From positions 15,013-79,012 of IMG/VR virus record IMGVR_UViG_3300037510_000657: DNA of 64,000 bases; one strand, given 5' to 3'. Below, piece after piece: positions 3,416 to 61,489 of the stretch. Both the position numbers and the translations under genes were made by a program. The stretch is from a virus. Position 1 is the first letter of the stretch. Every line of letters begins with the position of its first letter. Under the pieces are notes generated by a model. The model was not told the origin of the DNA. It made no database searches and worked only from the letters and a program-made list of their open reading frames with translations.

Positions 3416-4531
3416 ATGAGCAACGTTCCGGCGAGAGTACTGAACGACCTCTTCAACCAGCGGCTGGACACGTCCGAAGGCCGCGAGAAGGTCGCCGAGC
3501 AGGGTTCGGTCTACATCCGTGACCGTCTGCGCGAGGTCTGCTTCGTGGACAAGATCCTGCCCCCCGACCCGGTCACCCGGGCGGACTGCCAGGTCTCGGT
3601 CAACCACGACACGCTCGTGAAGATCGTCGAGATCGAGCCCAAGAGCCGCGCGATGACCATGTCGTTCCGTGGCCAGCCCACGGCGCGCTTCATCCGCGCT
3701 CCCCGCGTCGAGTGCCCCTTCTACACCATCTCCTCGGAGAAGTTCGAGAAGACGGAGCAGGAGCTCCTGGCGTACCAGATGCCGATCACCAAGGTGATCG
3801 AGGACAACTCGGTCAAGGATCTCCAGGAGATCAAGGACCGCGAGTTCCTCCGCTACATCGAGGCGGCGGTCCAGGCCCTGCAGTCGGATGCGAACGGTGG
3901 CGCGACCGCGCTCCGCGCGTCGACCTACGCGGCGACCGTCAAGAAGTCGGTCATCAAGGGCATCGGCGCCCAGGGCGCGTCGTCGGATGACTTCACGGTC
4001 TACCCGATCCTGCGCCCCGACCTGGTGAACCTCTTCAAGCTCATGGACGGTGAGCGTCTGCGTACGGAGCGGTTCATCATGACCGAGCCGGACTACGACG
4101 ACGTCCTCGCCTGGACCCTCCAGGACATGGGCGACAAGATGCAGTCGGAGACCATGGTCGACGGCTACAAGTACAACACGCTGCTCGGCCGCAAGCTGAT
4201 CCGCACCATCAAGACCGACATCCTGCGCATCGGCAACGTGTACGCGTTCGCCGCGCCGGAGTTCCTCGGCAAGAACTTCGTCCTCAACAACACGAAGTTC
4301 TACATCGACAAGGTGGCGAACCTGATCACCTGGCAGTCGTGGATGGACATCGGCATGATCATCGCGAACATCGCGTCGGTCCGGAAGCTCGAGCTGTACC
4401 CCGGCTCGGTGACCACCTCGGCCACCGACTCGGGCTACGCGGCGAAGCTGCCCGTGGAAGAGGACGAGCTGGGCGCGGAGAACAACAAGGTCGACAGCGG
4501 CCTCAAGTACCCCGACGTCTCGCAGTTCTAA
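3416..4531 (+). CDS. Major capsid protein (probably HK97 fold)
   Basis: 371 aa; strong SD; strongly biased codons; terminator downstream; position after scaffold/decoration-like genes. Confidence 0.7.
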   Translation: MSNVPARVLNDLFNQRLDTSEGREKVAEQGSVYIRDRLREVCFVDKILPPDPVTRADCQVSVNHDTLVKIVEIEPKSRAMTMSFRGQPTARFIRAPRVECPFYTISSEKFEKTEQELLAYQMPITKVIEDNSVKDLQEIKDREFLRYIEAAVQALQSDANGGATALRASTYAATVKKSVIKGIGAQGASSDDFTVYPILRPDLVNLFKLMDGERLRTERFIMTEPDYDDVLAWTLQDMGDKMQSETMVDGYKYNTLLGRKLIRTIKTDILRIGNVYAFAAPEFLGKNFVLNNTKFYIDKVANLITWQSWMDIGMIIANIASVRKLELYPGSVTTSATDSGYAAKLPVEEDELGAENNKVDSGLKYPDVSQF

Positions 4532-4563: not shown

Positions 4564-4605
4564 GGGGGCACCTGGACAACTCGGTTCGGGTGCCCCCTTT
4601 TCTTT
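4564..4605 (+). terminator. Intrinsic terminator after capsid gene
   Basis: GGGGGCACC/GGTGCCCCC stem followed by TTTTCTTT. Confidence 0.8.
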
Positions 4606-4641: not shown

Positions 4642-5220
4642 ATGTGGAAGATCACGAATACTGCGTTCGACCGTAACAAGGAACTCCTGCACCGGCAGGC
4701 GGCCAAGTTCAACCCGTGCCCCATGGTGGGCGGCAAGGTCCTCCGCCGTGGTGACTCGATCACCATCAGCGACGAGGTCTTCGCCACGACCGAGACCTAC
4801 CTGCGCGAGCTGGTGCGTACCGGCGTCATCGTCATGGCTCGTCTGGGCGTCACCGAAGACCCGAGCGGCATCGGCACCTCGCCCAGCGACCCCGACGCCA
4901 AGCACACGGATGGTGGCATCATCATCTCTGCTCCGAAGGCTGCCCACACCGATGGCGGCATCATCGTCACGGAGCCCCTCAAGACCGGCGTCATCATCAC
5001 CGACCCCCTGAAGGTCGAAGCGCCCGCCGGCGATGATGTGGCCCCTGTCGACGAAGTCGCGGCTGTCGAAGCCTCCGTCGAAGAGGTCGCCAAGACCGAG
5101 GAGTTCCTGGCCGATGTCGAAGCCGGCATCAAGGAGCTCGACGAGGGCAAGGGCGTGAGCACGGAAGAGCTCAAGGCGTCGTTCGAGGGCAAGAAGAAGA
5201 ACAAGAAGAACCGGCAGTAG
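4642..5220 (+). CDS. Post-capsid protein with GIGTSPSDP and HTDGGII repeats
   Basis: ATG 4642 after GGAGG; N-terminal domain resembles 5231..5608. Confidence 0.65.
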   Translation: MWKITNTAFDRNKELLHRQAAKFNPCPMVGGKVLRRGDSITISDEVFATTETYLRELVRTGVIVMARLGVTEDPSGIGTSPSDPDAKHTDGGIIISAPKAAHTDGGIIVTEPLKTGVIITDPLKVEAPAGDDVAPVDEVAAVEASVEEVAKTEEFLADVEAGIKELDEGKGVSTEELKASFEGKKKNKKNRQ

Positions 5221-5230
5221 GAGGTGACCC

Positions 5231-5608
5231 ATGATCGTCGTGGTCACCAACATCACTGATGTGCCTGGCGACCGTGGGGCAAGCCCTACGGAGGTCGAGG
5301 TCTACAACAAGCGTCTCGCCCCTGGTGGGACCCTGCGCCTTCCGGCCGAGCTCGTGAACAAGCGAGTCCGGGACCTGGAGAAGCAGGGCCTCGTCGCCAT
5401 CGGAGCGGTGCCGCCCTGGTACGTCCGGGCCAAGACCCGTGGCGGCAGCAGGGCCCTCACTGCGGAAGAGAAGGCCAAGCGCAACGTCACCCCTCCCCCT
5501 CCGCCGGCTCCGCCCGCGAAGGTTCTCCTCCTCGAAGACGTCGTCCCTGCCGTCATCGAAGGCGACGAGTTCGAGCTCAAGGCTTCGAAGAAGCAGAAGA
5601 AGGGGTAG
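5231..5608 (+). CDS. Post-capsid small protein, paralog-like to 4642..5220
   Basis: SD GGAGG; shared pattern TN...L.pG.s..i..e.....lr.L...G. Confidence 0.6.
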   Translation: MIVVVTNITDVPGDRGASPTEVEVYNKRLAPGGTLRLPAELVNKRVRDLEKQGLVAIGAVPPWYVRAKTRGGSRALTAEEKAKRNVTPPPPPAPPAKVLLLEDVVPAVIEGDEFELKASKKQKKG

Positions 5609-5610
5609 CC

Positions 5611-6102
5611 ATGTCGGATATCGTCGGCACCTCTGTCCCGTCCATCGAGCTCGCCATGGAGCAGTTCATCTCCACGGTGCGTCTCTTCACTCGCGACTAC
5701 CCGGCGTTGAACCGGCTCATCCAGGGTGAGGAGAGCTCGAACCGCCTCATCGCCTGGGCGGTCATCGACGCCATCGACGACTTCAACTCGACCCCTCCGC
5801 TCACCCGGTGGGGCTTCTCCAACTTCCCCTCTCGCCACCTTCTCCTGCGGGGCACGGTCATCAGCCTCCTGGAGTCGGTCGGCCTCCTCATGACCCGCAA
5901 CCACCTCACGTTCTCGGACGGCGGCATCCAGGTGGGCGTGAGTGACAAGACCCCGCTGATCCAGTCGTGGATCCAGCTTTTCACCAACAAGTACGAAGAG
6001 AAGAAGCTCCGTCTCAAGATCTCGATGAACATCGAGGGTGCCTGGGAGGGCGGCGTCCACTCGGAGTACCTCTGGACCTCCGGCTTCTACGGGGGCTGGT
6101 AG
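5611..6102 (+). CDS. Putative head-tail adaptor/head completion protein
   Basis: 163 aa helical protein downstream of the capsid gene. Confidence 0.45.
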   Translation: MSDIVGTSVPSIELAMEQFISTVRLFTRDYPALNRLIQGEESSNRLIAWAVIDAIDDFNSTPPLTRWGFSNFPSRHLLLRGTVISLLESVGLLMTRNHLTFSDGGIQVGVSDKTPLIQSWIQLFTNKYEEKKLRLKISMNIEGAWEGGVHSEYLWTSGFYGGW

Positions 6103-14287: not shown

Positions 14288-15106
14288 ATGCCCGTCACCC
14301 TTTCCTCGAGCATCCTGAGCACTCTCCGTTCGCTGGCCGCACGCGGTGACCAGACGGCGGTGGCACTCGTCGCCATCATGAACGGAACGAACACCGCGGC
14401 TCTCACGGCTGCTACCGAGGCTTCCGAGATCATCCGCATCAGCGGTCAGGTCAAGGACGCCGATGGCCAGGCCGTGGCCGCAGTGAAGAACGTGCGCGTC
14501 AAGGCCAAGCTGGCTCTCGGCACGCCCAAGACCGAAGTGGTCGTCGCGACCGCCGCGGCCCTGCCCGCCTGCACCGCCGCGGGTACCGGCGTGGGCCACA
14601 CCCTGACCGCCGACGCGGTCGGTGTCCTCACGATCGACGGCGTCGCCGTTGCCTCGGGCGACCGCATCCTGGTGAAGAACCAGGTGGCGGGAGACGACAA
14701 CGGTATCTACACCCTGACCACCGTCGGCACCGGCGGCGTGGCCTTCGTGCTGACCCGCGCCACCGACTTCGACGCTCTGGGCGAGATGCCCTACGGCTCG
14801 AACGTCTTCGTGCGCACTGGCAAGGCGAACGCCGGCAAGACCTTCGTGCTGACCTCGACGGTCGTCACGGTGGACACCACCGCCCTGACCTTCACCGACC
14901 TCGACACCCTGGTCACCCTCGGCCTCGGCGCCGCGGGCGCCACGGTCAAGTCCGGCACCGGAAGCCGCGACCTCTGGCTGCAGACGGCGTCCACTGGCGC
15001 CTTCTCGGTCGATGTCACCTCGGTGTCCGCCTGGACCGGTGACGTCCTCCTCGAGGTGGATGTCGACAACGGCGAGACCGAGCTCCTGGTCGTCACCTTC
15101 GCGTAA
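14288..15106 (+). CDS. Virion structural protein (fibre/appendage-like domain)
   Basis: GDRILVKNQ...DNGIY...LTRATDFD segment seen in phage fibre-type proteins. Confidence 0.5.
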   Translation: MPVTLSSSILSTLRSLAARGDQTAVALVAIMNGTNTAALTAATEASEIIRISGQVKDADGQAVAAVKNVRVKAKLALGTPKTEVVVATAAALPACTAAGTGVGHTLTADAVGVLTIDGVAVASGDRILVKNQVAGDDNGIYTLTTVGTGGVAFVLTRATDFDALGEMPYGSNVFVRTGKANAGKTFVLTSTVVTVDTTALTFTDLDTLVTLGLGAAGATVKSGTGSRDLWLQTASTGAFSVDVTSVSAWTGDVLLEVDVDNGETELLVVTFA

Positions 15107-61300: not shown

Positions 61301-61489
61301 CTACTTGGGGACGGAGGGCGAGGTGCCGATGCCAGCGACGAGCAGGTACTCGGCGTACGGATCGCTCGGCGAGGTGCCGATGCCGTTCTCCTGCGGCGGC
61401 GTGAAGACCACGCTACCGTCGCCGCCACGGACCTGCTTGAGGGCCTCGGTCGACAGCTGCTTGCGGGAAAGTGCGATGCGACTCTTCAT
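61301..61489 (-). CDS. Double-glycine-leader peptide precursor (bacteriocin/RiPP/pheromone-like)
   Basis: Leader ...LSTEALKQVRGG; core with GIGTSPS x2; SD GAAAGGAG. Confidence 0.7.
   Translation of the reverse strand: MKSRIALSRKQLSTEALKQVRGGDGSVVFTPPQENGIGTSPSDPYAEYLLVAGIGTSPSVPK

Follow-up and report, generated by a model that had tools for sequence, protein, structure and literature searches.

Background

Short linear motifs (SLiMs) and their imitation by viruses are central in eukaryotic virology and, to our knowledge, barely documented for phages. A short motif may also be shared between a protease and its substrates, as in the subtilisin-type maturation of Phr peptides and in PatA/PatG with the cyanobactin precursors, where the proteases have a motif in common with their own propeptide junction and with small substrates. 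Viral mimicry of host SLiMs is well documented for eukaryotic viruses (PMC10694346). As for foreign pieces in phage proteins, Mizuno et al. (2019) described bL12 domains variably placed in larger phage proteins whose homologues lack them (PMC6375957).

The locus described here resembles each of these systems in some respects and departs from each in others. It lies in a stretch of 64,000 nucleotides, referred to as the window, which covers positions 15,013 to 79,012 of the virus record IMGVR_UViG_3300037510_000657 from IMG/VR. A selected host-lineage motif is found there on two unrelated proteins of one large, uncultured soil phage, each time in a flexible segment: the product of the gene following the major capsid gene (4642, named by its start), and a small peptide with a double-glycine-type leader. 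The features are listed in Table 1.

Table 1. Positions of the features discussed (those of the phage are window positions unless a locus is named)
Feature	Position	Strand	Basis or remark
Major capsid protein gene, 371 aa, directly upstream of 4642	3416..4531	+	phrog_2522, tblastn
Strong hairpin resembling an intrinsic terminator, 14-bp stem followed by a T run	4564..4597	+	Between the capsid gene and 4642
192-aa ORF (P0001), member of an unnamed head-module family	4642..5220	+	HMMER relatives, synteny
Conserved folded N-terminal domain, residues 1-70, pI 9.9	4642..4851	+	AlphaFold2, alignment
Acidic disordered arm, residues 71-178, pI 4.1, hypervariable in the family	4852..5175	+	pLDDT 46-59, no secondary structure
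GIGTSPSDP, single canonical copy, start of the arm	4867..4893	+	Sequence; SGIGTSPSDP equals the junction copy of L142
Three degenerate units, HTDGGIIISAP, HTDGGIIVTEP and KTGVIITDP	4903..5001	+	Direct-repeat family D1; TRF
Basic C-terminal tail, residues 179-192, pI 10.6	5176..5217	+	K/R count in the family
Next gene, 125 aa, organised much like 4642 (small N-domain, linker rich in Pro, basic tail with KKQKKG at its end)	5231..5608	+	Syntenic orthologues
62-aa peptide gene, double-glycine-type leader, two motif copies	61301..61489	-	Sequence, pattern LSxxELxxIxGG
Peptidase_C39 gene	G000:C1:1608-2423 = L162:1159-1974	+	~12.6 kb upstream of the window start
Loci of 4642 homologues bearing L7/L12	L010:2830-3618, L013:2280-3059, L014:5232-6008, L015:3051-3827		
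4642 homologues with the LDGPT.EEW..AGY module	P0004, P0010, P0015, P0019, P0022, P0024, P0032, P0038, P0041, P0050; L005:1205-1930		
Haliangiales subtilases with GIGTSP	L096:3961-6390, L098:5429-7999, L106:2-2281(-), L142:1614-4250(-), L146:1153-3807(-), L153:7461-10127(-)		
Acidobacteriota signal-peptide proteins, 3-5 GIGTSP(A/V/M/I)P.PP units	L100, L101, L141, L147, L154, L158, L160		
Small highly charged Haliangium proteins, five DGIGTSP units, C-terminus exactly GIGTSP	L095:5192-5584(+), L102:7304-7690(-), L159		

Results

Three copies of the motif in one phage genome

An earlier note on this DNA had reported that a gene next to the capsid gene carries the same nine residues as a secreted-peptide precursor. 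On re-reading, both the coordinates and the identity were confirmed: GIGTSPSDP occupies residues 76-84 of the 4642 product and residues 36-44 of the peptide (61384-61358), which carries a further copy, GIGTSPSVP, at residues 53-61 (61333-61307). All three copies have the extended form GIGTSPS.P, with Ser at position +1 after GIGTSP and Pro at +3. The reported 17-nt identity among them also holds: the window contains the 17-mer GGCATCGGCACCTCGCC at exactly three places, and the whole 105,876-base (105.9-kb) record no further one, against 0.05 expected, and a count of three was reached in 0 of 100 shuffles. Codon usage of this phage is extremely biased (ATC 99%, GGC 67%, ACC 65%), and an independent copy of GIGTS would take the same five preferred codons with P=0.14; the 17-nt identity is thus mostly due to codon bias, and adds little to the identity of the amino acids. 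The next Ser is encoded by AGC in two of the copies and by TCC in the third.

Shared 9-mers are found elsewhere in the record as well: a six-frame control yielded three or four other, unrelated ones, all in low-complexity Arg/Ser/Pro-rich frames of non-coding appearance. Since such sharing does occur by chance, what speaks against coincidence is the independent conservation of the motif as a unit. Indeed, GIGTSPS.P is repeated within the peptide, recurs in the only homologue of the peptide (P0003), and is conserved in bacterial families described below; with assumed residue frequencies, we estimate the probability of a third GIGTSP arising by chance in ~35,000 coding residues at roughly 0.002.

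The best local DNA alignment between 4642 and the first copy in the peptide gene covers 43 nt, and similarity is confined to it. Within the nine motif codons there are three synonymous and no non-synonymous differences, and the differences in the flanking codons of the alignment are non-synonymous, a contrast resting on six or seven substitutions. Small as these numbers are, the pattern is the one expected if the nine residues were under selection in both genes and the copy were not brand new.

The peptide ORF is the only one in the record that matches LSxxELxxIxGG. Its homologue P0003 has two NGIGTSPS.P copies, with G-N-G in place of G-G, and no relatives of the peptide were found in viral contigs. 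The record also encodes a 271-aa protein with a Peptidase_C39 domain (49.5 bits, above the cut-off), which is retained at 57-64% identity in relatives without the GG-leader peptide, indicating that it is not dedicated to the peptide and has another main role; it could still cleave the peptide leader within the cell. No S8 protease, GT2 glycosyltransferase or protein kinase is encoded in the 105.9-kb record, which is ~50% complete.

A head-module family with a disordered arm

The adjacency of 4642 to a capsid gene, also put forward in the earlier note, is borne out by matches of the upstream ORF to the phrog_2522 major head protein (E 9.7e-07) and, in tblastn, to the annotated major capsid protein of Salmonella phage Arash (28% identity, E 3e-28). 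The closest cultured phages are distant, at this 28% capsid protein identity, and viral contigs contain 131 relatives of the capsid protein at 62-80% identity. Given the strong terminator-like hairpin ahead of 4642, synthesis of its product, through read-through or from a start of its own, would probably fall short of that of the capsid protein. Paralogy of 4642 with the gene that follows it was considered and rejected (hhalign profile comparison, probability 5%, not significant); the L006 orthologue of that next gene, at about 5613-6000, contains GIGTTPAP.

A full HMMER scan of 1.84 billion representatives gave 47 relatives of the 4642 product (E 1.5e-10 to 1e-3), all of which align only to its N-terminal part (residues 1 to 60-100). 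In 13 syntenic orthologues from related phage loci, the N-domain match lies 90-560 nt past the end of the capsid gene, and columns N6, R18, P27 and G61 are invariant in the family alignment. With this alignment, AlphaFold2 modelled residues 1-70 at pLDDT 94-98 in the order beta-alpha-beta-beta-alpha-alpha-beta, and left residues 71-192 disordered (pLDDT 46-59), with the lowest confidence at residues 79-97. The motif starts six residues past the folded domain, inside the poorly modelled stretch. The arm, rich in Pro, Glu, Ala and Val, is not alignable between homologues, and is net negative in 98% of the family. Of 48 family members, 47 end in a basic tail, with 4 or more K/R among the final 14 residues, and an AT-hook-like G(R/K)P(K/R) or GPG(K/R) core is present in 15.

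Searches for a named relative brought little. Fold matches of the N-domain are weak and non-diagnostic (VIA-align: uL30 at best, Z 5.0, and YqbF, Z 3.2; Foldseek against PDB, best E 0.15; BFVD, at best an uncharacterised phage protein of 51 aa, E 0.022), and the ESM Atlas yielded unnamed clusters only. The product has no match to any family in Pfam, PHROGs or NCBIfam, those of head decoration proteins (gpD, Soc, Hoc and Psu types) included; a word-indexed homologue search returned only the protein itself, and tblastn against 50,697 phage records returned nothing. An FHA domain, suggested by a weak match to the aprataxin FHA profile (E 0.084), is ruled out by the confident small alpha/beta model with three helices. 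The 4642 family is a conserved, uncharacterised head-module family of this lineage of jumbo phages, composed of an N-domain, a disordered arm and a basic tail.

As read from its sequence, the 4642 product has no signal peptide, so that exposure of the motif outside the cell would require a location on the virion surface, as in the display on the virion that the earlier note had put forward as a possibility. The basic, partly AT-hook-like tail suggests association with DNA rather than such a location, and the tail together with the L7/L12 inserts described below would point to a cytoplasmic or DNA-associated role, for example that of an internal head protein. As a rough split, we would assign somewhat less than half of the weight to an internal or DNA-associated site, a quarter to external decoration, and a little under a third to neither.

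The motif as a private insertion into the arm

The earlier note had proposed to look for the motif in homologues of 4642, and for its co-occurrence with the peptide in related phages; the outcome was negative on both counts. None of ~60 homologues of 4642 contains GIGTSP, and three relatives that are 91-100% complete (~190-210 kb) have neither the motif nor the peptide gene, the sole exception being a lone GIGTTP, at chance level, in the next gene of one of them. The co-occurrence is thus limited to a single genome, and tandem-motif scans of IMG/VR viral contigs revealed no other contig with tandem copies. The note itself would have taken absence from the homologues, combined with lack of co-occurrence with the peptide, as the mark of a one-off recombination scar, and a co-occurrence seen in one genome goes half of the way to that outcome. 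Because both the ~60 homologues and the near-complete relatives lack the motif, it is a private insertion of this one phage at the start of the arm.

A scan of viral contigs for GIGT[ST]P[ST]DP gave seven stretches, which is about the number estimated by chance. Two of the carriers, L084:3986-4225(+) and a DnaB-like helicase (L087/L088, in the C-terminal tail), carry GIGT(S/T)PSDP near a terminus, in an extension that lies beyond the conserved domain (phrog_1761/5120 and phrog_19); as the number of stretches matches the chance estimate, neither is counted as evidence.

The repeats that the earlier note had seen after the motif, HTDGGII twice and a degenerate third unit, are present as described. 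The units at 4903-4926 and 4945-4968 are 42 nt apart and 88% identical, and the third, LKTGVIIT, is at 4978-5001; spacings in the direct-repeat family are 42 and 33 nt, and the TRF period is 30. Read as a whole, the stretch after the N-domain forms a four-unit array, SGIGTSPSDPDAKHTD / GGIIISAPKAAHTD / GGIIVTEPLKT / GVIITDPLK. The G-I..S.P pattern and the HTD ends suggest that all units share their origin with the GIGTSP unit, and the most plausible view of the HTDGGII units is that they are decayed members of one short tandem array, next to the canonical unit, with no second motif involved. With one canonical copy and three degenerate units, 4642 lacks the multiple copies typical of the bacterial carriers. 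The homologue P0004 has DGGVII at the corresponding arm position.

Other family members carry other insertions in the arm. Between the head-module N-domain and the basic tail, the homologues P0037 and P0042 have the C-terminal domain of ribosomal L7/L12 (PF00542 in Pfam, above the cut-off with E 2.8e-11 and 2.2e-14). The arm is thus a site of module swapping that collects foreign modules. A second recurrent arm module of ~45 residues, ...G.(K/R)LDGPT.EEW..AGY.PE.YPP.GYAEKPS.GL..., has no match in Pfam.

GIGTSP proteins of soil bacteria

Each prokaryotic species, represented by one genome, was searched for pairs of units coding for GIGTSP within 33 nt, and the scan was repeated on metagenomes. 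The species genomes gave matches in Haliangium, Haliangiales and Kofleriaceae (Myxococcota), Acidobacteriota and Planctomycetota, and the metagenomes gave more of each kind. In the literature searched, GIGTSP came up solely in unrelated names of Unc5 constructs.

One family of carriers consists of S8 subtilases of ~800-900 residues (Peptidase_S8, E 3.9e-35) with lipoprotein-type signal peptides. Six orthologous members, 46-69% identical, have the motif at four conserved positions. At the junction of propeptide and mature enzyme it reads G(I/L)GTSP, with columns G, G, T, S and P invariant; in support of this placement, the closest subtilase chain of known structure, PDB 9rk9_B, begins to align at the Pro of the motif. 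The three further sites are linkers, the copy number varies from 1 to 7, and the sites fall in gapped, length-variable regions of the alignment. An AlphaFold2 model of the L142 subtilase, built from 6 sequences, has a mean pLDDT of 44 and is readable only at residues 56-134, where it takes the form of a beta-alpha-beta-beta-alpha-beta, propeptide-like domain. NCBIfam matches to PatA and mycosin stay far under the cut-off. It is worth mentioning that the L098 enzyme has a long His-rich insertion in its catalytic domain.

Other carriers are small proteins with signal peptides and two to five copies, including Acidobacteriota proteins built of GIGTSPAP.PP units. Conserved around the latter are genes for a secreted protein, VWA-like on visual inspection, for a multi-pass membrane protein (~247 aa) and for a protein of 158 aa; the two downstream neighbours match no Pfam family. 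The five-copy Haliangium proteins have no obvious signal peptide, and L097, like L095 and L102, is a carrier without export signals. In L095, the neighbouring genes encode a TPR-GAF histidine kinase and a PDZ-containing protease of the HtrA type. The motif also occurs shortly behind the lipobox of a lipoprotein, at the C-terminus of another protein, and twice in an ImuB-like protein. The usual count in bacterial proteins is 2-10, and single copies occur in L116 and L119.

Within a protein, the copies vary in their synonymous codons, with both TCN and AGY found for Ser, and GIGTSP stays the same throughout. In addition, the residue at +1 is uniform in each protein (T in 8/8 copies, G in 10/10, S in 5/5, S in 4/4, A in 5/5). 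An invariant GIGTSP and a uniform +1 residue in the face of codon turnover show selection at the protein level, the signature of a motif read by a co-evolving partner, so that GIGTSP with its lineage-specific next residue is a short linear motif under purifying selection. The claim of the earlier note that nine identical residues in unrelated genes are no coincidence is strengthened by these surface subtilases and secreted repeat proteins, in which GIGTSP is invariant despite synonymous codon turnover. Each of five Haliangiales genomes has 8-11 occurrences of the GIGTSP-coding pattern, which cluster in one to three genes; the reversed pattern, used as a control, gives 0-2 occurrences in four genomes and 7 in the remaining one. 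None of the five was seen to combine multi-copy small proteins with motif-bearing subtilases, and the idea that the subtilase is the reader of the small repeat proteins is thereby weakened.

The phage copies resemble particular bacterial ones. The metagenomic subtilase L142 has at its junction the very SGIGTSPSDP of 4642 and, elsewhere, GIGTSPSVP; the C-terminus of the phage peptide, GIGTSPSVPK, recurs unchanged in the secreted protein L145. The combination of S at +1 and P at +3 is shared with L142, L106, L145 and L119. Judging by this form of the motif, and by the match to L142, the host would be a bacterium with the S-type motif, and probably Haliangiales-like. The phage capsid protein was not found in 401 Myxococcota genomes, a result that is uninformative on the host. 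Beyond the motif, similarity between the arm and the subtilases was no better than in shuffled controls.

Discussion

Proposed mimicry of a host motif and its alternatives

The explanation that we favour, and consider on balance probable, is mimicry of a host motif on two phage proteins that have one putative reader in common. GIGTSPSDP, foreign to the 4642 family, is inserted at the first arm residues in one phage, at the head of a short tandem array with three presumably decayed units behind it. Soil bacteria maintain the same motif unchanged in disordered linkers of surface and secreted proteins, chiefly in lipoprotein S8 subtilases of Haliangiales (Myxococcota), and the phage has GIGTSPS.P three times, twice on the leader peptide and once on the arm. 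Both phage proteins would offer the same docking or processing site to one reader of the host lineage, be it a protease, a modifying enzyme or a binding partner, and would compete with, or join, the motif-bearing proteins of the host. In this scheme, we infer the functionality of the 4642 copy, the Haliangiales-like host, and the identity and location of the reader. The agreement between presence and absence supports the mimicry reading, in that the 91-100% complete relatives that lack the peptide also lack the motif.

As to the nature of the reader, a protease-site role fits the junction position, and fits poorly with the back-to-back arrays and with the separate genomes of the carriers; the arrays would fit a modification site or a binding epitope. 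A shared ligand, receptor or modification site, as proposed in the earlier note, is the natural reading, because the motif is selected and the phage copies share its extended form. This much of the proposal stands, whereas the two genes do not form a conserved pair. Several observations speak against mimicry. The link rests on n=1, with no motif in 4642 homologues and no second phage among the viral contigs scanned to show co-occurrence; 4642 has a single canonical copy, as opposed to the usual count in bacterial carriers; most of these carriers are extracytoplasmic, and the head-module protein of the phage is made in the cytoplasm; and none of the three candidate enzyme types sought is encoded in the available half or so of the genome. 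A more specific version, in which virions with a head-attached arm and an exported or released peptide engage the same putative host reader, such as a surface GIGTSP subtilase, for the purpose of adhesion, escape from proteolysis or decoy action, we regard as rather doubtful.

The main alternative is a neutral recombination scar, in which microhomology-mediated recombination or gene conversion between the peptide gene and the arm left a copied patch of ~40 nt that has no function and persists since the arm accepts almost any sequence. The hypervariable, unalignable arm, the absence of the motif from all homologues and relatives, the confinement of DNA similarity to 43 nt and the visible decay of the adjoining repeat units all agree with such an origin. 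It is nevertheless unlikely, although it deserves to be taken seriously: with all three motif differences synonymous and those of the flanks non-synonymous, the patch is not brand new and its nine residues are intact, and the extended form is retained in full, from the S ahead of the motif to the residues at +1 and +3, just as it is held under selection in the bacterial proteins. The same bacterial proteins bear on the possibility that GIGTSP is a capsid-targeting or cargo-loading signal, docking inside an HK97-fold shell so that both the peptide and the 4642 product are packed in the head. Encapsulin loading peptides are short, Gly/Ile-rich, and dock on the inner face of such shells, and GIGTSP may resemble them; 4642 directly follows an HK97-type capsid gene, its motif is in a flexible segment, and the basic family tail fits an internal protein contacting DNA. 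Yet the main carriers, lipoprotein subtilases and signal-peptide proteins, cannot be capsid cargo, relatives with 73-80% identical capsid proteins are entirely devoid of the motif, and in 4642 it is internal (residues 76-84 of 192) and not terminal, which makes a loading signal quite improbable.

A nucleic-acid element, with the 17-mer acting as a DNA or RNA site (regulatory, recombinational, or an sRNA target) and the residues being incidental, would account for three exact copies where 0.05 are expected. All copies, however, are in frame and use preferred codons, for which P=0.14 per copy, unrelated bacteria maintain the peptide motif with other codons, and the codon of the next Ser already differs among the phage copies; we therefore give this explanation very little credence. 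Hardly any is left for pure compositional coincidence in a GC-rich genome. The three or four other unrelated 9-mers common to frames of the record speak in its favour, but these are in low-complexity Arg/Ser/Pro frames, while GIGTSPS.P is repeated in the peptide and kept in P0003 and in bacterial families, with a chance estimate of ~0.002.

Comparison with known systems

Beyond the phage itself, the analysis reveals a motif system of soil bacteria that had not been described and of which a phage has a copy. GIGTSP with its lineage-specific next residue is new to the literature searched, and its conservation in Haliangiales subtilases equals that of the catalytic residues.

The leader peptide resembles precursors of double-glycine-leader bacteriocins and pheromones processed by C39 peptidases, as its leader fits LSxxELxxIxGG and the record has a Peptidase_C39 protein. 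It differs from such systems in that the C39 gene is kept in peptide-less relatives, and P0003 has G-N-G, not G-G. The subtilases recall the Phr- and cyanobactin-type proteases, GIGTSP being present both at the propeptide/mature junction of an S8 enzyme and, repeatedly, in small secreted proteins. Unlike in those systems, arrays of 4-7 back-to-back copies look more like linkers or modification sites, the small repeat proteins and motif subtilases were not both found in any of the five genomes, and GIGTSP is at most a putative cleavage site.

The arm of the 4642 family, in carrying L7/L12 domains variably, parallels the phage bL12 insertions (PMC6375957), and the arm is therefore a platform for foreign modules, with GIGTSPSDP as a very small one. 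It differs from the published cases in that the insert is a nine-residue motif and not a folded domain, and the capsid-following 4642 family is not described there. A further parallel is SLiM mimicry by eukaryotic viruses. The present case differs in that it concerns a phage, that no bacterial literature on the motif was found, and that the host is deduced only from the form of the motif. As in eukaryotic viruses, however, a motif in a disordered viral segment is identical to one selected in proteins of the host lineage, has been acquired privately by one virus, and is found on more than one viral protein. One phage bears the motif on two unrelated proteins, one of them from a head-module family whose disordered arm gathers foreign modules, and the form of the motif may serve as a new host-prediction signal for uncultured phages. 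If the proposed reading is true, motif-level mimicry of the type seen in eukaryotic viruses would extend to a phage of predatory soil bacteria.
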